DNA of 32,000 nt, from positions 1 through 32,000 of the forward strand of contig NQJD01000007.1 in the NCBI GenBank assembly GCA_004284765.1, in the 5' to 3' direction. The DNA comes from Candidatus Electronema aureum. Lineage in GTDB: Bacteria > Desulfobacterota > Desulfobulbia > Desulfobulbales > Desulfobulbaceae. Below are positions 2,353-20,798 of this stretch, in pieces. Each line of letters begins with the position of its first letter. The stretch's first letter is position 1. Under the pieces are notes generated by a model, which ran no database searches, was not told the DNA's origin, and saw only the letters and a program-made list of their open reading frames with translations. The position numbers were made by a program, and so were the translations under genes.

Positions 2353-3225
2353 ATGATCGCAAAGATACTTTTTACCCTTATCCTGACTTTTATTTCTGCC
2401 GCTGCTTGGGCTGAACCCCTATCGGTGCTAGTCTCTATTACTCCGCAGCTATGGTTAGCCAACCAGATCGGCGGTGAGCTGATTAACACCCGCGTCCTTC
2501 TCGACAAAGGCCAAGACCCACACGGAATGCAGCCCACGCCGGAGCAAGTCACAGCGTTGTTTCGCTCCCGCATATACTTTACTGTTGGGCTGGAATTCGA
2601 GCACGAGTTAGAGCGGAAAATCAACCAGCCTGACACTGGAGTGCAGGTGGTGGATACCTCCGCAGAGATAAAGAAGATTTCCATGACTCAGCATAAACAT
2701 GGACACTATGAACAAGGTGAGGCGCAACACGGCGGTCTTGATCCCCATGTTTGGCTTGATCCACAGAACCTCCGACAGATGGCTGCGGCAATGGCTGCTG
2801 CGTTGAAGAAAGCTGATCCAGCCAACGCAGCAGTGTATGAGCGAAATCTCCAGAATACGGACAAGACCTTGACTGAGTTACATACGAAGATCAAGCAGCA
2901 GTTGGCTCCGTTCAGCGGCCAGTCTTTTCTCGTTTTTCATCCTGCGTTCGGCTACTTTGCCCACGCCTATAGTTTGCACCAAGAAGCCGTAGAGGTGGAG
3001 GGGAAATCACCTTTGCCTCGGCAGCTGCACGCGCTGATTGTTAAAGCCAAGCAGGAGAAGATCAAGGTGATCTTTGTTCAGCCACAGTTTGATCGCAAGA
3101 ATGCTGAGACCATCGCCCAAGCAATTGGTGGCACAGTGGTCAGCTTAGACCCGATGGCTGTTGATGTGCCGGGAAATTTGCGCTATATGGCTGAACAGAT
3201 CAGCGCTGCCCTTGCTCCCAAATAA
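2353..3225 (+). CDS. znuA: zinc (Zn/Mn family) ABC transporter substrate-binding protein
   Basis: Signal peptide MIAKILFTLILTFISAAAWA. Cluster A-I SBP blocks DPHVWLDP and VFHPAFGYF. His-rich loop HKHGHYEQGEAQHGG typical of ZnuA. Immediately followed by ATPase and permease genes. Confidence 0.8.
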   Translation: MIAKILFTLILTFISAAAWAEPLSVLVSITPQLWLANQIGGELINTRVLLDKGQDPHGMQPTPEQVTALFRSRIYFTVGLEFEHELERKINQPDTGVQVVDTSAEIKKISMTQHKHGHYEQGEAQHGGLDPHVWLDPQNLRQMAAAMAAALKKADPANAAVYERNLQNTDKTLTELHTKIKQQLAPFSGQSFLVFHPAFGYFAHAYSLHQEAVEVEGKSPLPRQLHALIVKAKQEKIKVIFVQPQFDRKNAETIAQAIGGTVVSLDPMAVDVPGNLRYMAEQISAALAPK

Positions 3226-3227
3226 TC

Positions 3228-3983
3228 ATGAGTGAAGCAGTTATTACTATCCGAGGTCTCGGCTTCGCCTACGATGAAATGCCGGTGTTGACGAATGTGG
3301 ACTTGGATATCTGGCCGCAGGATTCAGCCTGCATAGTCGGGCCAAACGGCGGCGGCAAGACCACCTTGGTCAAACTGATGCTCGGCCTGCTTGAACCGAA
3401 CCACGGCAGCATCCTCATCGGTGGTAAAACCCCCGCCGAGGCACGACGCAGGATCGGCTATGTTCCCCAGTATGCCCGCTACGATGCCTGCTTTCCCATC
3501 TCAGCGCAGGAGGTGGTCTGTATGGCGCGCCTCGGCAGCTCTTTCAGCGGCAGATACACGAAGCAGGATAAGCAGGCGGCATTAGAGGCATTAGCAGCGG
3601 TCAGTCTGGCAGATTTAGCCCAGCGGCCTTTTTCCGCTTTGTCCGGCGGGCAGCGGCAGCGGGTGCTGATCGCGCGCGCTTTGGCTTCGGGCGGCGATAT
3701 CCTTATTCTTGACGAACCCACAGCCAGCCTTGACCGCGAGTCTGAACAGGAGCTGCTTGCTTTGTTAGCCAAGCTGAACCAAGAGAAGATTATCCTGATG
3801 GTGACGCACGAGACCGGCTTTTCCTCCACCTTTTTCAAACGGATCATCTGCGTCAACAACCAAGTTTATGTGCATCCGACCAGCGCGCTGACTGGTGAGC
3901 TGATCCGCGAGATGTACGGCGGCGATCTACGGATGATTCGCCATGACCACCGCTGCTGCCCTGAAGGACACCAACATGACTGA
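3228..3983 (+). CDS. znuC: zinc ABC transporter ATP-binding protein
   Basis: Walker A GPNGGGKTT, ABC signature LSGGQRQRV, Walker B ILILDEP. Starts 2 nt after the znuA stop. The C-terminal tail is His/Cys-rich (HDHRCCPEGHQHD). Confidence 0.9.
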   Translation: MSEAVITIRGLGFAYDEMPVLTNVDLDIWPQDSACIVGPNGGGKTTLVKLMLGLLEPNHGSILIGGKTPAEARRRIGYVPQYARYDACFPISAQEVVCMARLGSSFSGRYTKQDKQAALEALAAVSLADLAQRPFSALSGGQRQRVLIARALASGGDILILDEPTASLDRESEQELLALLAKLNQEKIILMVTHETGFSSTFFKRIICVNNQVYVHPTSALTGELIREMYGGDLRMIRHDHRCCPEGHQHD

Positions 3984-4827
3984 GCTGTTTGCCGCCCTGA
4001 CTGACCCTGATCTGCCGTTCCTCCGCTACGGCCTGCTCACAGGCCTGCTGGCCTCGATTTCTTTTGGCATTATCGGCACGTTTGTGGTGGTGCGACGGAT
4101 CAGCTACATTGCCGGAGCCATCTCTCACTGCATCTTGGCTGGCATCGGTGGTGGCCTGTACCTCCAGACCGTGGCCGGTATCTCATGGTTCACCCCCATG
4201 ACCGGCGCAGTGATTGTCGCCCTACTCTCAGCGGTGATCCTCGCCCAAGTCAGCCGTCATGCTGGACAGCGGGAAGACTCGATCATTGGCGCGCTCTGGT
4301 CAGGCGGCATGTCTATTGGCTATCTTTTCATTGCTGCCACGCCAGGCTACTTTGATCCCAACTCGTATCTTTTCGGCAATATCCTGCTGATTACCAAGCA
4401 GGACATCTTCTTTGTCGCCGCTCTTGATCTGGTCATCTTAGCAGTGGTAGGCATCTTCTATAACAAGCTGCTGGCCATCTGCTTTGACGAGGAATACACC
4501 TTGTTGCGGGGAGTACGCACCCAGTGGTTGCACCTGCTTCTACTCTGCCTGACCGCATTGACTATTGTACTGTTGATCCGCATCGTCGGCATCATCATGG
4601 TGATTGCTCTGCTTACCTTACCTGCTGCCATTGCTGGCAATTTTGCTGCCAGCATCCGGCAGATGATGCTTCTTGCTGCTTTCTTCTGCGCAGCCTTCAT
4701 CACCACTGGATTAGGGGCCAGTTTTTACCTTAATCTGCCCAGCGGCTCGGTAATTATTGTGCTTGCCACTGGAGCTTATTTGCTCAGTTTAGCCTTGGAC
4801 AGAAAACGAACGGGGGGTCGAACTTGA
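3976..4827 (+). CDS. znuB: zinc ABC transporter permease
   Basis: Polytopic membrane protein with ZnuB/TroC-like blocks (FVVVRRISYIAGAISH, LLTLPAA). ATG 3976 overlaps the znuC stop by 8 nt. ATG 3943 is an alternative start. Confidence 0.85.
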   Translation: MTELFAALTDPDLPFLRYGLLTGLLASISFGIIGTFVVVRRISYIAGAISHCILAGIGGGLYLQTVAGISWFTPMTGAVIVALLSAVILAQVSRHAGQREDSIIGALWSGGMSIGYLFIAATPGYFDPNSYLFGNILLITKQDIFFVAALDLVILAVVGIFYNKLLAICFDEEYTLLRGVRTQWLHLLLLCLTALTIVLLIRIVGIIMVIALLTLPAAIAGNFAASIRQMMLLAAFFCAAFITTGLGASFYLNLPSGSVIIVLATGAYLLSLALDRKRTGGRT

Positions 4828-4967
4828 AAAGAAAAAAGAGGCTATGACTCAGTGAGCAGCATTGCCAAGAGAGAAAAGGCTTGCAAGTTTCTGGAAACTC
4901 CTTTACACTACCGGAACGTAATGAGCATGTTTTGTTTTAATTGTATATATGACGCGGAGTGAGATAT

Positions 4968-5555
4968 ATGAATAAGCTGTTTTCTTTTGCTATTGTTGTT
5001 TGTTCCGCCGTTATCTTGAACGGCTGTCAGCCTTACACCAATTCCTTCCCAGAATACGGGCAAAGCTCATCAACAACGGTTTATAAATATACCTCCTACC
5101 CCAACCGTTCCTCCTCGTCTATCCGCACGATTCAGCCGGAAGAAACATGGATTGAAGCACCTTCAACAACATCTTACACGTCACCGATAACCTATTATCC
5201 AACAACTCGATATAATTCGTACACGACGAATTCTTACACTACGATCCCGGTTTATCGGCCCCGACAGAACAGAACAAGATATTACGGCGACTGGTATTCT
5301 GGGCCAGCTTTCACCACGCCGCCGATGCAGCCCATACCTTATCCGACCGAGCAGTATTATCCCTTCAAGCGTCCATCCCCCGGTATCTACGTGCCTTGGC
5401 AACAAAGCAGCTGGCAAAATTCAGTCATGCCGAGGCGGTCAATCTATTATCCTCAGCAGCGTATAACCGTACCCTCATCAAGTTATTACTACTCCACATA
5501 TCCATCGACGCGGATCAGTACGCCCGTGTATATGGGGCCAACGTGGTGGTACTAA
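4968..5555 (+). CDS. Tyr/Ser/Thr/Pro-rich putative lipoprotein (LP1), low complexity
   Basis: MNKLFSFAIVVCSAVILNG|C has a signal peptide with a near-canonical lipobox (Asn at -2). GGAG lies upstream of ATG 4968. The mature part has about 27 Tyr in about 176 residues (my count) and ends in WWY. Confidence 0.75.
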   Translation: MNKLFSFAIVVCSAVILNGCQPYTNSFPEYGQSSSTTVYKYTSYPNRSSSSIRTIQPEETWIEAPSTTSYTSPITYYPTTRYNSYTTNSYTTIPVYRPRQNRTRYYGDWYSGPAFTTPPMQPIPYPTEQYYPFKRPSPGIYVPWQQSSWQNSVMPRRSIYYPQQRITVPSSSYYYSTYPSTRISTPVYMGPTWWY

Positions 5556-5626
5556 GGCAGAGCTTTTGTTGTATGTGACATGGAAAACAAGTAGTTCCTT
5601 CTGTACAACCTTCATCTGGAGGTCTT

Positions 5627-5896
5627 ATGAATATCAAAAGAATGCTGCTGGGCCTTGCCGCTATCGTTGGCATATTGAGCATGAACGGCTGTTACTATCA
5701 TCCTCTACCTCCTCCAGCGGCGGTCGTGATGCCTGAGACCCAGTCGTATGAGTCGTATGTTGTGGTTCCTTCCGCGCCAAGTATCCGAATTGCACCGTCT
5801 CGGCGTTCATATCGTCATTACGATTACCGTTACGCTCCTCGTCATTACCGCACGTACCGTCATGATCCTTACCGTAATTATCGTCATTATCGGTAA
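5627..5896 (+). CDS. small putative lipoprotein (LP2) with polyproline N-terminus and RxYRHY-repeat tail
   Basis: GGAGG lies 6 nt upstream. MNIKRMLLGLAAIVGILSMNG|CYYHPLPPP. The tail is RRSYRHYDYRYAPRHYRTYRHDPYRNYRHYR. Confidence 0.75.
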   Translation: MNIKRMLLGLAAIVGILSMNGCYYHPLPPPAAVVMPETQSYESYVVVPSAPSIRIAPSRRSYRHYDYRYAPRHYRTYRHDPYRNYRHYR

Positions 5897-5956
5897 GAAT
5901 CGCTGCGATGATGCCCATTGTAGTTGCGTTCTTCATCACAACACAGGAGAAGAATC

Positions 5957-6070
5957 ATGAAGAGATGTATCAGTCAAATGATTTTCTTAGCTCTTGTTGC
6001 CGGAATTCTCGGTGGCTGCTATTTCCCGCCGCCGCCTCATCACCCTCCCTATAGGCACCACAGACGTTAG
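5957..6070 (+). CDS. 37-aa putative mini-lipoprotein (LP3), not in ORF track
   Basis: AGGAGA at 5945-5950, ATG at 5957. MKRCISQMIFLALVAGILGG|CYFPPPPHHPPYRHHRR, stop TAG 6068-6070. Canonical lipobox LGGC. Shares the CY[YF]xPxPPP start and YRH[YH]R end with LP2. Confidence 0.65.
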   Translation: MKRCISQMIFLALVAGILGGCYFPPPPHHPPYRHHRR

Positions 6071-6079
6071 GTCAGAGCC

Positions 6080-6118
6080 AAGGGCTGCGTTGAACTTTCT
6101 GATGCAGCCCTTTCTATT
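6080..6118 (+). terminator. candidate intrinsic terminator after LP3
   Basis: AAGGGCTGC (6080-6088) pairs with GCAGCCCTT (6104-6112), followed by TCTATT. Confidence 0.5.
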
Positions 6119-6234
6119 CAAGGCTGTGTGCAAAAAATACTTGAAGAAGAAGCGACAGTCGCAGTATATTGATCAAATGACGTATCCATAAGGGAACGTC
6201 TGCTTTATGCTCACTCTCTTTAAGGATTATAATC

Positions 6235-6366
6235 ATGAACGCACTGAAAATGTCCCTCGTCCTGTTACTTGCAGCCTGCCTCTTCTCTGGTTGTACGGTA
6301 TATCACCAAGAGGCACCTCGTAAGTCTTCTGCTCCGTCCAACAGCCCAGAGCAGAAAGCGTATTAA
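6235..6366 (+). CDS. 43-aa putative mini-lipoprotein (LP4), not in ORF track
   Basis: AAGGA lies 9 nt upstream. MNALKMSLVLLLAACLFSG|CTVYHQEAPRKSSAPSNSPEQKAY, stop TAA 6364-6366. Canonical lipobox FSGC. Confidence 0.6.
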   Translation: MNALKMSLVLLLAACLFSGCTVYHQEAPRKSSAPSNSPEQKAY

Positions 6367-6376
6367 GATGTAACAA

Positions 6377-6418
6377 AGCGGGATTCTTTTCCTCCTGTAT
6401 TAGAGGAAGAATCCCGCT
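6377..6418 (+). terminator. long hairpin terminator closing the lipoprotein array
   Basis: AGCGGGATTCTT (6377-6388) pairs with AAGAATCCCGCT (6407-6418), with an inner CCTC/GAGG extension. An AT-rich tract follows. Confidence 0.6.
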
Positions 6419-6446
6419 GCATGATTAAAATTCTGTTGTTCCCGGC

Positions 6447-6477
6447 TTGACAATCCCCTCTCTTTCTGTGTTATATA
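6447..6477 (+). promoter_or_regulatory. candidate sigma70 promoter of the carbonic anhydrase gene
   Basis: TTGACA at 6447-6452. An AT-rich -10 region GTTATATA lies 17-19 nt downstream; the exact hexamer is ambiguous. Confidence 0.45.
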
Positions 6478-6485
6478 CTATCAGC

Positions 6486-6520
6486 ATTCGGCGACCTACT
6501 ACAGAAGTAGGTCGCCGAAT
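6486..6520 (+). promoter_or_regulatory. perfect 15-bp stem-loop at the predicted 5' end of the carbonic anhydrase transcript
   Basis: ATTCGGCGACCTACT (6486-6500), loop ACAGA, AGTAGGTCGCCGAAT (6506-6520), then CGTTCTTTAT. Sits between the candidate promoter and ATG 6577. Confidence 0.6.
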
Positions 6521-6576
6521 CGTTCTTTATGCAACGTTTGAGAAAATCTCAGTACAATAATCTTCAGGAGAAGACA

Positions 6577-7422
6577 ATGAAACGAGGAGTTATCAAGACT
6601 GTTCTTGGGGCCTGCCTGCTGGCTCTGGCTGCCACACCTGCTTTTGCCACTGACCTAACCGCAGATCAGGCATTGACCAAGCTCAAAGAAGGCAACGAGC
6701 GTTTCGTTAGCGGTAAGTCTATGCACCCGCACACTGACGCAGCTCGGCTGATTCAGGCGGGCAAGGAAGATCAGGGCAACCATGCCTACGCCACCATCAT
6801 TTCCTGCTCAGACTCCAGAGTGCCGGTTGAGCGGATTTTTGATGCAGGCATCATGGACACCTTCATCATCCGGGTGGCTGGTAACGTGATTGACACCGAC
6901 GAGGCAGGCTCTATCGAGTACGGCTTGGCTCATGTTAACACCCCGGTCTTTCTCGTGTTAGGTCATACGCAATGCGGCGCAGTTAAGGCTGTGACTGCGG
7001 CTGTGACTGGCCACGGCCATGCGCTGGAAATCAACATTCCGCCCTTGGTTGATAACATCGAGCCTGCGGTCAAGCGGGCGATGGAGCTGAATCCCAAGGC
7101 AAAAGAGGACAAGGATATCGTTCCAGCGGCCATTGTTGAAAACGTCTGGCAAGGTGTGCAAGACCTGTTCACAAGAAGCGCAGCAGTACGCGAGATGGCC
7201 AAGGGCGGCAAAGTCAAAGTGGTTGGTGCCATTTATGACGTAAGTACCGGCAAGGTTGAATGGCTGCCAGAAGATAAGGTAGGTACCATTCTGGCTGATG
7301 TTGAGAAAGACCCGAAACGGCAGATGCAAGCGATGGCTGACGAAGGCAAAGGCCACGAGGACCACGGCGACAAGAAAGAAGAGCATAAGGAAGAAGGCAA
7401 GAAGGAAGAGAAGCACAACTAA
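6577..7422 (+). CDS. beta-class carbonic anhydrase with N-terminal signal peptide and His/Glu/Lys-rich C-terminal tail
   Basis: Beta-CA zinc ligand motifs CSDSR and GHTQCGAV. AGGAG upstream of ATG 6577. MKRGVIKTVLGACLLALAATPAFA|TD looks like a Sec signal. Tail is GKGHEDHGDKKEEHKEEGKKEEKHN. Confidence 0.9.
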   Translation: MKRGVIKTVLGACLLALAATPAFATDLTADQALTKLKEGNERFVSGKSMHPHTDAARLIQAGKEDQGNHAYATIISCSDSRVPVERIFDAGIMDTFIIRVAGNVIDTDEAGSIEYGLAHVNTPVFLVLGHTQCGAVKAVTAAVTGHGHALEINIPPLVDNIEPAVKRAMELNPKAKEDKDIVPAAIVENVWQGVQDLFTRSAAVREMAKGGKVKVVGAIYDVSTGKVEWLPEDKVGTILADVEKDPKRQMQAMADEGKGHEDHGDKKEEHKEEGKKEEKHN

Positions 7423-8836: not shown

Positions 8837-9775
8837 CTATCGGGGATTGGCCGCAGGAGGTGCGGGTTGGCTGGCGCGTAGCTGGGCCAGTTCATCCAAC
8901 CACTGCTGCATCTTCTTGGCATAGGGATGCTGCATCGCCCCCATTTCCTGATACAGACTCAGACTCTGCTTCCAAGCTGCTTCCGCCTTGTCGATCTCGC
9001 CCTGTATTCCATACACAATGCCCAGATTGCCGTAGTCGTTTGCCATGCCTTTCTTGTTGCCCAATACTTGTTCAATCTCAAGGCTCTTCCTGTACATCTC
9101 CTCGGCCTTGTCCAGCTTGTCGCGTGTCCGATACACAAGGCCCAGATTGCCGAGAGCCACTGCCTGCACCTCTTTATCCTGATGCGCTTCACCCAAGGCC
9201 AGCACTTTGCGAAAGGCATCTTCCGCCTGCGCCAGCTCCTCTTTGCGGACGAGCAGAAGCCCAAGCATGTTCCAGCCGTCCGCATTGTCCGGGTCAAGCT
9301 GCACCGCCTTCTGGTAGGCAGCCAAGGCCTCTTTGGGGTTGTTCATATACGCCAATGCGCCCAAGTGGCGGGCGGCTGCCGCTGCTTCCGTGTTGGCCTT
9401 CTGCCCTTCCGCCTCCTTGCTGCGCAGTACCTCAGCAAAGATGGCCTGCGCCTTGGCAGTGTGGCCCTGCTGCAATGCTTGCAAGGCATCGTTGATGCTT
9501 GCAGCGGACGCGCCAGTCTTGGACAAGGCGGTGATTGCTTCAGTCAGGGCCTTGTTCTGCTCATCCTTGGCCTCAAGCTGCTGCCTAACCAGCTCTCGTG
9601 CCATCTTGACGACCTCCTCCGATGACATGCCGTAGGTCACAGTCACATTGCCGGTGTTGGAGAAGATGTTACCGTCTCCGCGTACCTCCTGCGTGACGTT
9701 CTCCTGCTTGCCAGTAGCGTGGTCGCCTTGAGCTATGTTCTGCTCGCCGCCCTTGCTGTCAAATGTGTCTCCCAT
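8837..9775 (-). CDS. TPR-repeat protein with Gly/Asn/Thr-rich soluble N-terminal module
   Basis: At least five 34-aa TPR units (e.g. AVALGNLGLVYRTRDKLDKAEEMYRKSLEI, MANDYGNLGIVYGIQGEIDKAEAAWKQSLSL). The N-terminus is MGDTFDSKGGEQNIAQGDHATGKQENV...GNVTVTYG. Confidence 0.85.
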   Translation of the reverse strand: MGDTFDSKGGEQNIAQGDHATGKQENVTQEVRGDGNIFSNTGNVTVTYGMSSEEVVKMARELVRQQLEAKDEQNKALTEAITALSKTGASAASINDALQALQQGHTAKAQAIFAEVLRSKEAEGQKANTEAAAAARHLGALAYMNNPKEALAAYQKAVQLDPDNADGWNMLGLLLVRKEELAQAEDAFRKVLALGEAHQDKEVQAVALGNLGLVYRTRDKLDKAEEMYRKSLEIEQVLGNKKGMANDYGNLGIVYGIQGEIDKAEAAWKQSLSLYQEMGAMQHPYAKKMQQWLDELAQLRASQPAPPAANPR

Positions 9776-9822
9776 CTTGTTTCCTTTGCTACTGTTGCTT
9801 GCTTACACAATCCCCAGCTTGC
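9773..9822 (-). repeat. junction repeat copy A (3' end of TPR-262 + RBS + ATG of TPR-312)
   Basis: A 24-nt core, TTGCTTACACAATCCCCAGCTTGC (9799-9822), is identical to 10609-10632. The flanking ~20 nt are about 70-80% similar. Confidence 0.85.
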
Positions 9823-10591
9823 CGAGGGCCGCTGCCTGCTCATCTTGGTTCTGATGCGCTTCAGCCAAGGCCAGCACTTTGCGGTATGCTTCTTCTGCCT
9901 GCGCCAGCTCCCCTGTGCGGCAAAACAGATGACCAAGCCAAGTCCAGCCAGCCGCATTGTCCGGGTCAAGCTGCACTGCCTTCTGGTAGGCAGCCAAGGC
10001 CGCTTTGGTGTCGTTCATATAAGCCAATGCGCCCAAGTGCCGGGCTGCTGCGGCTGCTTCCTTGTTCGCCTTTTGCCCTTCCGCCTCCTTGCTTCTCAGC
10101 ACCTCAGCAAAGATGGCTTGCGCCTGTGTGGTGTTGCCTTGCTCCAATTCCTGCAAGGCTTCGTTGATGCTTTTGACGGGCGCGCCAGTCTTGGACAAAG
10201 CTGTGATTGCTTCAGTGAGGGCTTTGAGCTGCTGATTTTTATCCGCTATCTGCCGGTCTTTCACGTCCAACTGCGCAAAAAGTCGCTCGGCTGTCTTGCC
10301 CGCATCAACCGAGACAATCTTCTCCTTTTCCATGTAGCTGTTCCAAGCAGATAAACCAATGCCTGAGAACTGGAGCAGAAAGCCCGCCAGCACCAAGACC
10401 AGCCCCAGCCAGAAGCCGTAGCGGAGAATCAGCTTGAGTATCTCGCTGCCGTCTTTCTTGCTTACTTGCGGTAGCAGCCCAGACTTCACAATCTCTTTGT
10501 GCATACCAAAAACCAGCATCAGCACAAAGCCCACCAGCGCCAGCGGGTGGGTGAGATACTGCGCTACTTTGGAAAAGCCTGTGATGTCCAT
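9803..10591 (-). CDS. membrane-anchored TPR protein (about 3 predicted TM helices), C-terminally truncated paralog of 8837-9775
   Basis: Hydrophobic segments are LALVGFVLMLVFG and FWLGLVLVLAGFLLQF. Residues ~123-261 are highly similar to residues ~75-208 of the neighbour. It ends LGKLGIV* in the middle of a TPR unit, where the paralog continues LGNLGLVYRTR. Confidence 0.8.
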   Translation of the reverse strand: MDITGFSKVAQYLTHPLALVGFVLMLVFGMHKEIVKSGLLPQVSKKDGSEILKLILRYGFWLGLVLVLAGFLLQFSGIGLSAWNSYMEKEKIVSVDAGKTAERLFAQLDVKDRQIADKNQQLKALTEAITALSKTGAPVKSINEALQELEQGNTTQAQAIFAEVLRSKEAEGQKANKEAAAAARHLGALAYMNDTKAALAAYQKAVQLDPDNAAGWTWLGHLFCRTGELAQAEEAYRKVLALAEAHQNQDEQAAALGKLGIV

Positions 10592-10632
10592 TTGTTTGCT
10601 CCTGTTATTTGCTTACACAATCCCCAGCTTGC
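10589..10632 (-). repeat. junction repeat copy B (3' end of higA + RBS + ATG of TPR-262)
   Basis: Same 24-nt core at 10609-10632, 810 bp from copy A. It encodes the last residues KLGIV* of HigA. Confidence 0.85.
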
Positions 10633-10894
10633 AGCCTAATGCCTCAACCACCTTTCTGACCGTCTCAAACTTCGGCGAGCTGCCCTGCGCCAAGGCTTTG
10701 TAGAGATTCTGGCGGCTGAGATTGGCCTTCTTGGCTATTTCGCTGATGCCCTGCGCTTTGGCCACCTGCCCAATGGCCATCATCAGCTGCTCGCTGTCGC
10801 CTTCCTCAAAGGAAACCTTGAGGTATTCACGGATCATCTCTGGGCTGTCGAGATATTCAACTGCATCCCATGTTCTCGTGGTTGTTTTATTCAT
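10613..10894 (-). CDS. higA: HigA-family addiction-module antidote protein (HTH, TIGR02684-like)
   Basis: WDAVEYLDSPEMIREYLKVSFEEGD...IAKKANLSRQNLYKAL...PKFETVRKVVEALG is the typical pattern of this antitoxin family. ATG 10894 overlaps the toxin stop by 8 nt. Confidence 0.85.
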   Translation of the reverse strand: MNKTTTRTWDAVEYLDSPEMIREYLKVSFEEGDSEQLMMAIGQVAKAQGISEIAKKANLSRQNLYKALAQGSSPKFETVRKVVEALGCKLGIV

Positions 10895-11195
10895 GATCTT
10901 GCTCCAATTCTTCCATGATGGCTTTTGCCCGTTCAATGTCTTTGCTCTGGCTGGATTTATCGCCGCCGCAGAGGAGGAAAACAACTTTGCACGCTCTTAT
11001 GGTGTAGTAAGCGCGGAAGCCGGGGCCGAAAAAGAAACGCAGCTCAAATAGCCCGTCTCCCAGATTTTTGTGATCACCAAAGCTGCCAAGCTGAATCCTG
11101 TCAAAACGGCTGATGATTCTTGCCCGGAAGGTGATGTCTTTGATGCCAGCCAGCCATCTGTCAAAGACATTGGTTGTCTCAATTTCGTATTTCAT
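10887..11195 (-). CDS. higB: HigB/RelE-superfamily addiction-module killer protein (TIGR02683-like)
   Basis: FDRWLAGIKD...ARIISRFDRIQLGSFGDHKNLGDGLFELRFFFGPGFRAYY...LLCGGDKSSQSKDIERAK matches the conserved pattern of this toxin family. Toxin-first order is typical of hig loci. ATG 11195 is preferred over TTG 11222. Confidence 0.85.
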   Translation of the reverse strand: MKYEIETTNVFDRWLAGIKDITFRARIISRFDRIQLGSFGDHKNLGDGLFELRFFFGPGFRAYYTIRACKVVFLLCGGDKSSQSKDIERAKAIMEELEQDHE

Positions 11196-11242
11196 CTGTT
11201 GACTGTCGCATGGAAGAGACAAGTTGTCAAGAATGCCAGCCG

Positions 11243-16497: not shown

Positions 16498-17016
16498 TTA
16501 CTTGTTCAGAACATCCTTCCGCACGCTGTTTGCAACATCCGCAGCCTTTTTAATCTGATCATCTTTCACGCCCAGCTCTTTCAGAGCCGCGCCCAAATGC
16601 TCAAGAATAACATCAAAGTGGCTGTCGTTCAGCCCTTTCTGCACTAAATGAGCATGAGCAGTGCGCAGGTCGCGACCGGCATACGCATTAGGGCCACCAA
16701 AGGCAAAGGTCAAAAAAGCCTTCTGCATTGCTCTCTGACGATCCATATCAACCCCTTTGAAAAAGCCGTTGACCCGATCATCAGCCAGCACTTTTTTGTA
16801 GAAAAGATCAACTGCTGCATCAACGGCCTTCTCGCCGCCCAGCTGCTCATACAGGGTCGGTTCAGTAGGCTTTGCTGCTTCTGTCGCCGGAACCTCAATC
16901 TTGGTTTCCGGGGCGGCAGGTGCAACAGCTGCATCTTTTTTCGCAAAGGCGTTATGGCCAACAGCAATGGTCAGAAAAGCTGCTGCGGCTGTTGCTACGA
17001 GAATTGTTTTTTTCAT
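16498..17016 (-). CDS. glbN: group I truncated haemoglobin (trHbN) with N-terminal Sec-type signal peptide and Ala/Pro/Glu linker
   Basis: The globin core LYEQLGGEKAVDAAVDLFYKKVLADDRVNGFF...DMDRQRAMQKAFLTFAFGGPNAYAGRDLRTAHAHL...HFDVILEHLG aligns block by block with cyanobacterial GlbN as I remember it. The N-terminus is MKKTILVATAAAAFLTIAVGHNAFA|KKDAAVAPAAPETKIEVPATEAAKPTEPT. Confidence 0.9.
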   Translation of the reverse strand: MKKTILVATAAAAFLTIAVGHNAFAKKDAAVAPAAPETKIEVPATEAAKPTEPTLYEQLGGEKAVDAAVDLFYKKVLADDRVNGFFKGVDMDRQRAMQKAFLTFAFGGPNAYAGRDLRTAHAHLVQKGLNDSHFDVILEHLGAALKELGVKDDQIKKAADVANSVRKDVLNK

Positions 17017-19859: not shown

Positions 19860-20798
19860 TCAGAACCAAATGTTCTTCACTGAATGGAACATAGTGTAGG
19901 AGCCGAGAACGATAATCAGCACTGCGCTGGCAATGCTCAACTTTCGGGCGATGTCTAAGTTGTCGCTGATCTTGCCGGTCAGATGACGACTCTGCGACAG
20001 CAGCACGCCAATGGTGATCATTACTCCACCGAGGCCGAGACTGAAGAAAAGAGTAACGCTCAAGCCTTGGGCGATCTTGCCTGCGGCAATCGCAGCAAGC
20101 AGCGTGGCAATGGCTGCGGGGCAGGGGATGAGTCCGCCGGACATACCCAACAGAAGCAGCTCCCATTTGCTTTTCGGTGCGCTCTTGCCGTGGTCGTTGT
20201 GGTCGTGATGGTTGGGTGCGGCAGGTGCAGGATCATGGTGTTCATGGGGATGAGGATGTTCATGATAGCCGCTGCCCTCTCCTTCGTGTTCATGCGGATG
20301 CACATGCGGGTGCTGATGCTCGTGAACATGCTCATGAGGCGGCGGGGTTTCGTGCTGATGATCATGCTCGTTTCCGTCTCTATGTACATGAGGATGCTCA
20401 TGCGGATGATGGTGTTCGTGGCTGTGTTCGTTGTGCGGGTGGTGATGATCATGCCCACTGCCAAAGAGATGAATATGGCCGTGACCTGAACCAGAAAGTC
20501 GCTGCCGTAACATCCAAATACCAACGATCAGAATCAGCGCAGCAGAGAACAGACCTAACCAGTTGTGCAGCACTTCGTCCGAGTAGGTCTTGGAGAGCAG
20601 CATCGCCACCAGACCAAGTAGGATGACGCTGAAGGTATGGGTGATAGTAACGATAGTGCCGAGCAGCACACCGTCCCAAGCCCGGCCTCTGGTGCCGACC
20701 ATATAGGCTGCGATCAGGGTCTTGCCGTGACCGGGTTCAAAGGCATGAAATGCGCCGAGGATAATCGCCCCAGAATACAGTGTAAACAGCGTGGTCAT
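19860..20798 (-). CDS. RcnA/NicO-family nickel/cobalt transporter with very long His-rich loop
   Basis: N-terminal HAFEPGHGKT motif characteristic of the RcnA/NicO family. About six hydrophobic segments. The central ~100-residue loop has about 39 His (my count), e.g. HDHHHPHNEHSHEHHHPHEHPHVH. Confidence 0.8.
   Translation of the reverse strand: MTTLFTLYSGAIILGAFHAFEPGHGKTLIAAYMVGTRGRAWDGVLLGTIVTITHTFSVILLGLVAMLLSKTYSDEVLHNWLGLFSAALILIVGIWMLRQRLSGSGHGHIHLFGSGHDHHHPHNEHSHEHHHPHEHPHVHRDGNEHDHQHETPPPHEHVHEHQHPHVHPHEHEGEGSGYHEHPHPHEHHDPAPAAPNHHDHNDHGKSAPKSKWELLLLGMSGGLIPCPAAIATLLAAIAAGKIAQGLSVTLFFSLGLGGVMITIGVLLSQSRHLTGKISDNLDIARKLSIASAVLIIVLGSYTMFHSVKNIWF

Follow-up and report, generated by a model that had tools for sequence, protein, structure and literature searches.

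A tandem array of small tyrosine- and proline-rich lipoprotein genes between a zinc importer and an exported carbonic anhydrase in cable bacteria

The genome of the freshwater cable bacterium Candidatus Electronema aureum raises the question of what role is played by four short genes, LP1 to LP4, which follow one another on the plus strand between the zinc importer genes znuACB and the gene of an exported beta-carbonic anhydrase (CA), and each of which encodes a lipoprotein precursor of low complexity. The array lies in a 32,000-nucleotide stretch of contig NQJD01000007.1 (assembly GCA_004284765.1, positions 1 to 32,000 of the forward strand), the whole of which is called the window below. It had been described in a sequence-only reading of this DNA, and the array itself, its placement, and the coordinates, strand and signal-peptide ends of all four open reading frames (ORFs) were confirmed in the present analysis. 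The LP families proved to be lineage-restricted orphan lipoproteins, conserved in both genera of cable bacteria. A tentative reading, to which a probability of about 0.3 is given, is that the array encodes disordered periplasmic tethers that hand zinc to the binding protein ZnuA and to the exported CA.

Four predicted lipoproteins of extreme composition

LP1 (4968..5555, plus strand; CDV28_1077 / CAK8720468.1) encodes a precursor of 195 aa with the signal peptide MNKLFSFAIVVCSAVILNG directly before the lipid-type Cys, and LP2 (5627..5896, plus strand; CDV28_1078 / CAK8720473.1; named 'Lipoprotein' in UniProt) one of 89 aa, whose signal peptide ends in ...GILSMNG before Cys. LP3 (5957..6070, plus strand) encodes a precursor of 37 aa, in which the signal peptide MKRCISQMIFLALVAGILGG precedes the Cys and the mature peptide, CYFPPPPHHPPYRHHRR, has 17 aa. 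LP4 (6235..6366, plus strand; LDFHOB_09910 / CAK8720478.1) encodes 43 aa, with MNALKMSLVLLLAACLFSG before the Cys and a mature peptide of 24 aa, CTVYHQEAPRKSSAPSNSPEQKAY. The Shine-Dalgarno sites that had been claimed for the four genes were found as well, GGAG lying 8 nt from the ATG in LP1, GGAGG 4 nt in LP2, AGGAGA 6 nt in LP3 and AAGGA 8 nt in LP4.

In all four precursors a Lys or Arg within the first seven residues is followed by an uncharged hydrophobic stretch, and the lipid-type Cys, at positions 20, 22, 21 and 20 from LP1 to LP4, is preceded in each case by Gly. When judged by the strict PROSITE-type lipobox rule, [LIVMFWSTAG]2-[LIVMFYSTAGCQ]-[AGS]-C, LP3 (ILGGC) and LP4 (LFSGC) fit, and LP1 (ILNGC) and LP2 (SMNGC) deviate solely by Asn at position -2; the sequence-only reading was right to raise this non-canonical residue as a caveat, and orthologs carry LSGC, LGGC or LNGC. 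The window contains 485 ORFs that start with ATG and have 30 aa or more, and 9 of them match a relaxed form of the pattern. Four of these nine are the genes of the array, clustered head to tail within 1.4 kb, and the other five are without a hydrophobic core. LP1 to LP4 are predicted substrates of signal peptidase II, that is, precursors of the lipoprotein type, and they are very probably real lipoprotein genes.

LP1 is present in identical form on the 2.94-Mb chromosome OW818638.1 (GCA_942492785.1), and databases already list LP1, LP2 and LP4 as hypothetical proteins. The claim that both of the smallest ORFs are unannotated holds for LP3, for which no gene is called in the closed-genome record OW818638.1 and whose exact sequence is absent from a collection of 15 billion proteins, but not for LP4, which had been deposited under the identifiers given above.

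The mature parts are dominated by a few amino acids. The 176 residues of mature LP1 include 27 Tyr (15%, the background in the large ORFs of the window being 2.3%), 26 Ser, 25 Thr and 25 Pro, with six acidic residues and WWY at the C-terminus; an earlier count of about 27 Tyr in about 176 residues was exactly reproduced. LP2 contains 19% Tyr and 16% Arg, and its mature part runs from a CYYHPLPPP start through a Pro/Val spacer into a Tyr/Arg/His tail that ends in ...YRNYRHYR. A motif reported as common to LP2 and LP3, with a C-Y-[YF]-x-P...PPP start and a YRH[YH]R end, is indeed present in both. The proposal built on it, that LP3 is a minimised paralog of LP2, could be upheld in part: the GC-Y-[YF]-x-PPPP start is conserved, but LP3 reaches only about 10 bits with the LP2 profile, so that paralogy is statistically undemonstrable. 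A member from Electrothrix, GGCYFPPPPGPGG..., is intermediate between LP2 and LP3.

No match to any of the four LPs was found in Pfam at E up to 1 or in NCBIfam, and LP1, LP2 and eight homologs remained without a match in Pfam at E up to 10, which bears out the earlier failure to recognise a named family. A search of positions 4700-6700 against Rfam gave a sole sub-threshold match, ROSE_2, with 22 bits as compared to a gathering score of 65, and this match was dismissed. In Data Supplement 2 of PMC13293266 LP1 is labelled 'YXWGXW repeat-containing'. The likeness to the YXWGXW lipoproteins (Pfam WXXGXW, PF12779) lies in small size and in richness in Tyr, Trp, Gly, Pro and Arg, and LP1 has the segment YYGDWYSGP and ends in GPTWWY; however, LP1, LP2 and the eight homologs all fail the PF12779 profile, and the label was rejected for LP1 because neither Pfam, at E up to 10, nor NCBIfam profiles match it.

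AlphaFold2 was run on LP1 and LP2, each with its family alignment. From a shallow alignment of 9 sequences LP1 was predicted with pLDDT 48, pTM 0.12 and no secondary structure, and from a likewise shallow alignment of 14 sequences LP2 was predicted with pLDDT 56, pTM 0.17 and the signal-peptide helix only. Mature LP1 and LP2, being modelled without a fold, would fit intrinsically disordered proteins. According to the sorting rule of E. coli, a lipoprotein without Asp at position +2 is directed to the outer membrane; none of the four LPs has Asp at +2, and if the rule applies in this phylum they would be placed in the outer membrane. The description that suits the products of the array best is that of periplasmic proteins predicted to be lipid-anchored and intrinsically disordered, in which short motifs are conserved.

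Conservation and gene neighbourhood in cable bacteria

A word-indexed search with LP1 returned eight clusters, the named ones being from Desulfobulbus sp. F1/F4 and Electronema sp. VV/V4. An exhaustive profile search gave seven proteins among 1.84 billion representatives. When a genome set with a single representative of each GTDB species was scanned, four loci came up, of which three belong to named Electronema and one to the metagenome-assembled genome Desulfobulbaceae bacterium UBA5173. Matches of the LP1 and LP2 families were found solely in cable bacteria and in metagenome contigs without an organism name, and LP3 and LP4 were traced in cable-bacteria loci only.

Within the variable Tyr/Ser/Thr-rich sequence of LP1 there is an invariant core, GPxFTTPPMQPxPYPTExYYPFKRPSPG, the LP1 core peptide being FTTPPMQPIPYPTEQYYPFKRPSPGIYVPW. 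Most LP1 orthologs (P0003-P0008, P0024-P0026; L016 7313-7924) carry C-x2-C-x2-C at the lipidated Cys (GCQICTDCEP, GCTVCTDCEP), a motif that is lost from LP1 of E. aureum, E. nielsenii and contig L010. LP2 conserves C-YYY-PPPP...PAPxIVVPxP; two forms of its tail occur, rich in Tyr, Arg and His in one clade and poly-Pro in a second. LP3 with its lipobox occurs in E. nielsenii and in sp. VV, V4 and JC, following the pattern GGC-[YC]-x-x-PPPP...HH, and is absent in UBA5173, PJ and L016. Orthologs of LP4 with CTVY[HN]Q[ED]APKSS are found in UBA5173, sp. PJ and L016, with diverged forms in VV, V4 and JC, and their C-termini differ (KAY, QNR, VQQ, QKM, GQY). A fifth lipoprotein, the His-rich LP5 (CWHHHETSRHE...), follows LP4 in UBA5173 and PJ.

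The small ORFs keep their order and intact signal peptides in sp. VV, V4 and JC, E. nielsenii, UBA5173, sp. PJ and two JGI contigs. The lipoboxes of related Electronema loci are canonical (LSGC, LGGC, LSAC), and retention of ORF, signal peptide and lipobox persists where the identity of LP1 drops to 35-45%. Values of pN/pS, based on small counts, were 0.10 for LP1 (compared with E. nielsenii), 0.08-0.5 for LP2, 0.07-0.35 for LP3 and 0-0.3 for LP4. In close species pairs the spacers are 94-98% identical and the LP coding sequences equally or less so; between sp. VV and V4 (L007 and L009), for example, the spacer between LP4 and CA is 98% identical and the LP4 coding sequence 89%, with indels. 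The adjoining non-coding DNA evolves more slowly than the mature parts of the lipoproteins. Because the spacers are as conserved as coding sequence in close species, nucleotide identity is uninformative on coding, and the case for coding is built on the retention of ORF and lipobox at deep divergence, which is a stronger argument than pN/pS, together with pN/pS itself and the expression values. The conservation and znu synteny that the sequence-only reading had proposed as a check are both seen, the ORFs being kept in relatives with pN/pS below 1.

For LP3 a different explanation was weighed, in which the ORF is untranslated and owes its conservation to a leader or regulatory function of the DNA that separates LP2 from LP4. 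The gene has just 37 codons, it has no entry in the published expression table, as it is unannotated, and the similar conservation of spacers and coding sequence between close species would agree with such a role. A non-coding LP3 is nevertheless highly improbable in view of its own AGGAGA Shine-Dalgarno site 6 nt from the ATG, its pN/pS of 0.07-0.35, the C-Y-F-PPPP start that it has in common with the Electrothrix family member, and a signal peptide, GGC lipobox, PPPP and HH that are kept between clades whose LP1 sequences are about 40% identical.

A weak match to the LP2 profile, P0022, led to a locus of the marine Electrothrix sp. GW3-4, in which genes for four lipoproteins of 54, 197, 79 and 61 aa, rich in Tyr, Pro, Ser, Thr and Arg, come after znuA-znuC-znuB; next in line is the gene of a delta-class CA (PF10563) with a lipobox of its own, LATVGC (L015 8617-9453). 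The delta-CA, which belongs to another enzyme family, is a non-homologous replacement at the position of the beta-CA of Electronema. In E. aestuarii (L017 5992-7776) four lipoprotein ORFs come after znuB, and only one of them, of 86 aa, is called in the public annotation; among the uncalled ones is an ORF of 266 aa in which a 14-aa unit, PVTRTYTPVIRRSx, recurs in tandem about eight times and which ends in a tail of Cys and Pro (CCPPPTSCCP). The Electrothrix members of 61 and 71 aa score 29 and 26 bits, respectively, with the LP2 profile. The LP1 profile gave no credible match among the Electrothrix array members (at most about 10 bits), and we regard LPb, the long lipoprotein of Electrothrix, as an analog of LP1 and not as a demonstrated homolog. 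In E. communis RB the neighbours WLE97423 to WLE97425 are absent from the expressed and core lists.

The importer genes upstream of the array in the window are znuA (2353..3225, plus strand), encoding the periplasmic Zn-binding protein of an ABC importer (PF01297 at 7.5e-67), znuC (3228..3983, plus strand), encoding the ABC ATPase (PF00005), and znuB (3976..4827, plus strand), encoding the ABC-3 permease (PF00950 at 2.1e-63); LP1 starts 140 nt 3' of znuB. The best solved relative of ZnuA is the Zn-specific ZnuA of Synechocystis (1pq4, E 8.5e-50), with which the DPH, DPH and FHP motifs are aligned along with a His-rich loop, and the protein, with these three His ligand motifs and the loop, is of the Zn type. 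On the other side of the array, the exported beta-CA (6577..7422, plus strand; PF00484 at 6.8e-38) has a Sec-type signal peptide that ends in ...AATPAFA before TD. At its C-terminus (window 7340-7422) there is a His/Glu/Lys-rich tail, EGKGHEDHGDKKEEHKEEGKKEEKHN, the composition of which is conserved in seven species (the window plus L007, L009, L012, L013, L014 and L016).

This arrangement recurs. The array was found 3' of znuACB in eight of ten distinct cable-bacteria loci, those in which the lipoprotein genes come after znuB being E. aureum, sp. VV, V4 and JC, UBA5173, L016, Electrothrix GW3-4 and E. aestuarii, and an exported CA follows the array in all seven Electronema-type loci with a visible downstream region. 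In L007 (850-6282) and L009 (5815-6291) the znu operon is split, a gene of the Uma2 family separating znuA from znuC; sp. VV has two large genes inserted in addition, encoding 1029 aa and 577 aa, the latter with FG-GAP/TSP_3, and the znuCB-LP-CA block stays intact despite these insertions and a complete turnover of the outer flanks. On contig L010 LP1 and LP2 adjoin folE2, which encodes the Zn-independent GTP cyclohydrolase IB and is a classic gene of the Zur regulon. Two non-cable Desulfobulbaceae, with ZnuB 69-71% identical, have no array, and unrelated genes on the opposite strand stand right after their znuB. The genomic tie of the array to zinc genes is stronger than the sequence-only reading could know, since it extends to both genera, to the non-homologous CA replacement and to the folE2 neighbour.

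Such a tie may also be read as plain inheritance, the LPs being generic fast-evolving orphan lipoproteins with no functional connection to zinc or CA and with a position after znuB that was passed down from the ancestor of the cable bacteria. All loci belong to one family-level clade, the flanks beyond the znu-LP-CA block are rearranged, LP3 has been lost and LP5 gained in some loci, and znuA, the LPs and CA differ in expression level. We regard this explanation as rather unlikely, however, as the block has survived insertions within the znu operon (Uma2 and the two large genes), the replacement of beta-CA by delta-CA and the complete turnover of the outer flanks, and as an independent folE2 neighbourhood exists.

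A literature search on the LP genes, the CDV28 locus tags, the znu/CA locus and a link of Tyr to fibres returned nothing beyond the expression table of PMC13293266. Three of the four genes were already known as hypothetical proteins, and expression values stood unremarked in that supplement. What is new is the array as a conserved family set of cable bacteria that spans both genera and of which no match bears the name of an organism from beyond the lineage, together with the unannotated LP3, the uncalled Electrothrix members, the non-homologous replacement of the CA and the absence from two non-cable relatives.

Possible roles in zinc hand-off, envelope structure or carbonate chemistry

In the favoured reading, Sec export and lipidation would leave the LPs hanging from a membrane (the outer one, by the E. 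coli rule) into the periplasm, where, rich in Tyr and Pro, they may serve as flexible tethers. Segments rich in His, namely the tail of LP2, the HH pairs of LP3 and C-x-x-x-H of LP4, could bind Zn(II) next to the membrane and buffer it there, and Cys-rich segments of orthologs, C-x2-C-x2-C after the lipid Cys of LP1 and the CCPPP tails of Electrothrix, would be their equivalents. The zinc would then be passed on to ZnuA and to the Sec-exported CA, which has to obtain its zinc in the periplasm. The ligand-free cores (FTTPPMQPxPYPTExYYPFKRPSPG in LP1; CYYYPPPP...PAPxIVVP in LP2) might serve as docking motifs and spacers, not as metal sites. The conserved His-rich tail of CA, the Zn-type ZnuA and a znuB-linked array in two genera all speak in favour of zinc. 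If it is true, the array would represent a new type of periplasmic metal buffer, disordered and lipid-anchored, that in sulfidic sediment supplies both an importer and a zinc enzyme exported through Sec.

There are precedents for accessory zinc-binding proteins encoded with importers of the znuABC type, such as ZinT, AztD, Pseudomonas PA4063 and streptococcal Pht/AdcAII. Like the LPs, these are encoded beside a zinc ABC importer and exported to the periplasm or the surface, several of them are His-rich and partly disordered, and their capture of zinc and hand-off to a binding protein is the role that is proposed here for the LPs. They differ from the LPs, which are four tandem, lipid-anchored proteins dominated by Tyr, Pro, Ser, Thr and Arg, with ligand-free cores and with zinc binding that is a prediction.

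Expression values for E. aureum GS are contained in Data Supplement 2 of PMC13293266, which combines proteomes, given as intensity-based absolute quantification (iBAQ), with a transcriptome, given in transcripts per million (TPM); a dash in this table means less than 500 TPM or absence from every proteome. LP1 has an iBAQ of 5,649,300 and a TPM of 677, and LP2 (TPM 511) and LP4 (TPM 6387) are in no proteome. The downstream CA reaches an iBAQ of 80,980,800 and a TPM of 2397, and the array-linked znuA an iBAQ of 777,100 and less than 500 TPM. With its TPM, LP4 is close to AprB (6468) and to a major porin (6944) listed there. The sequence-only reading had named absence of translation as a ground for doubt, and LP1 is detected as a protein and LP1, LP2 and LP4 as transcripts. 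In the pangenome table of PMC13293266 znuABC and CA are core and the LPs are not, which is to be expected from their rapid divergence. The same supplement lists a second ZnuA in E. aureum GS, CAK8715968.1, with an iBAQ of 2.0e7 as compared to 7.8e5 for the array-linked ZnuA, and a second carbonic anhydrase, CAK8712683.1.

A number of observations weigh against zinc hand-off. LP4 (6387 TPM) and CA (2397 TPM) are far above znuA (below 500 TPM) in the same culture, so they do not simply share the regulation of the importer, and a de novo comparison of 17 regions from 11 sources (the window and ten loci) found no shared Zur-like palindrome 5' of znuA, LP1, LPa, LP4 and CA. LP1 offers no invariant metal ligand, and its C-x2-C-x2-C motif does not occur in E. 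aureum itself; metal ligands are likewise wanting from the conserved core of either LP1 or LP2, and the His content of the LP2 tail differs between clades. No CA comes after the array of E. aestuarii, and in sp. PJ and L010 the array stands without a preceding znuB, although in PJ the CA still follows. The synteny was observed within one family and perhaps reflects common descent in part. Finally, the four LPs have no Pfam or NCBIfam similarity to known zinc chaperones (ZinT, AztD, Pht, PA4063-like).

Almost as likely as zinc hand-off is a structural role specific to the envelope of cable bacteria, in which the Tyr/Pro/Arg-rich disordered LPs would make up a matrix tethered to the membrane, a spacer or a layer held by cross-links. 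The variants that may be envisaged include Tyr-Arg or Tyr-Tyr contacts and polyproline spacers that link the membrane to peptidoglycan, fibres or junctions, the znu/CA neighbourhood being incidental or regulatory. A structural role would agree with the restriction of named matches to cable bacteria and the absence of the array at the same locus in two non-cable relatives, with the extreme Tyr/Pro/Ser/Thr/Arg composition and lack of a predicted fold, with conserved cores that hold no metal ligands, and with the approximately eight PVTRTYTPVIRRSx repeats of Electrothrix, which are rich in beta-branched residues. A transcript at the level of the major porin, as seen for LP4, is what would be expected of a small structural lipoprotein; yet LP2 and LP4 are in no proteome, and the iBAQ of LP1 is modest (5.6e6, the values of the top envelope proteins exceeding 1e9; PMC13293266 Data Supplement 2). 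The fast evolution of the mature sequences, with indels, also weighs against a structural part, no published link of the LPs to fibres was found, and the repeated association with znuACB, with two unrelated types of CA and with folE2 is left unexplained.

Braun's lipoprotein Lpp offers a comparison for LP4, which is also very small and very highly transcribed. Lpp is a helical coiled coil whose C-terminal Lys is cross-linked to peptidoglycan. The short mature peptide of LP4 is, unlike Lpp, of low complexity and has a variable C-terminus, and an Lpp-like reading of LP4 was rejected, there being no LPP match in Pfam and no conserved C-terminal Lys.

If the structural role is the true one, the LPs become candidates for an envelope matrix. 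Cable bacteria conduct electricity via a specialised common periplasm, and in the literature the mechanism of conduction and the structure of the cofactor are still open. It is tempting to speculate that the array supplies building blocks of this periplasm, either as a non-conductive matrix or anchor for the nickel-containing fibres or as a Tyr/His proton or charge relay for CA. We consider this very unlikely; if true, it would place the array in the protein inventory of the conduction machinery and not among zinc accessories. The locus would rank high only if the LPs prove to be part of the conduction envelope, and otherwise it is a solid lead of moderate interest.

The abundance of the CA (iBAQ 8.1e7) draws attention to yet another role, that of a partner in pH and carbonate chemistry, with the titratable Tyr, His and Arg residues forming a proton buffer or relay, or with the LPs blocking the nucleation of carbonate minerals in the manner of statherin or amelogenin. 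Cable bacteria face extreme pH swings. A beta- or delta-CA is the most constant downstream neighbour of the array wherever that region can be seen, and this holds even for sp. PJ, which has no znuB upstream of the array. The composition recalls Tyr/Pro/Gln-rich proteins of mineral control; like statherin, amelogenin and the extensins, the LPs combine Tyr, Pro, Gln and His with the lack of a fold, and their association with CA brings biomineralisation to mind. This is an analogy of composition only, as the LPs, unlike those proteins, are bacterial and lipid-anchored, share no homology with them and are without the acidic or phosphorylatable clusters (acidic residues or phospho-Ser) that typify mineral-binding proteins. 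Since the case consists entirely of composition and adjacency, and the array of E. aestuarii has no CA after it, a role of this kind is thought unlikely.

Transcription signals and other genes of the window

Several elements that could subdivide the locus at the level of transcription were read from the DNA. An inverted repeat lies 3' of LP3 (6081..6111, plus strand; AGGGCTGC...GCAGCCCT, then TTCTATTC), its 15-nt loop placing it outside the rules of the hairpin scan, and it is a possible terminator or attenuator between LP3 and LP4. It is followed by a promoter-like site 5' of LP4 (6141..6170, plus strand; TTGAAG-18-TATATT), which we infer to act as the promoter of LP4; a TPM of LP4 about 12 times that of LP2 is consistent with a promoter-like site of its own. 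Directly 3' of the LP4 stop codon there is a long imperfect hairpin (6377..6418, plus strand), likely a terminator, and comparable strong hairpins are found 3' of LP4 in other species.

Upstream of the CA start, a hairpin at 6486-6520 has a perfect 15-bp stem (ATTCGGCGACCTACT / AGTAGGTCGCCGAAT; -27.8 kcal/mol) and gave no match in Rfam; a near-consensus promoter-like sequence, TTGACA...TATACT, lies 5' of it at about 6447-6480. This hairpin may be either an element of the 5' untranslated region or a terminator. Taken with the repeat, the promoter-like site and the hairpins, the unequal levels of the LPs and CA would fit separate transcription units. The corrected gene models make the published proteome and RNA-seq data re-minable.

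On the minus strand at 19860-20798, some 13.5 kb away from the array, lies the gene of a membrane protein of the NicO/RcnA family; the central loop of this protein, of about 100 residues, is packed with His, and the protein matches the expanded-loop RcnA of cable bacteria in PMC11247825. A gene for a truncated (bacterial-like) globin is found at 16498-17016 on the minus strand; by accession order it is probably the 'Hemoglobin' CAK8720534.1, with an iBAQ of 6.0e7 and a TPM of 1957 (PMC13293266). Between rdgC and the formate-tetrahydrofolate ligase gene, the minus strand at 10613-11222 and 8837-10591 also holds a HigB/HigA-like toxin-antitoxin pair (Gp49 and a helix-turn-helix protein) and two genes of paralogous TPR proteins.

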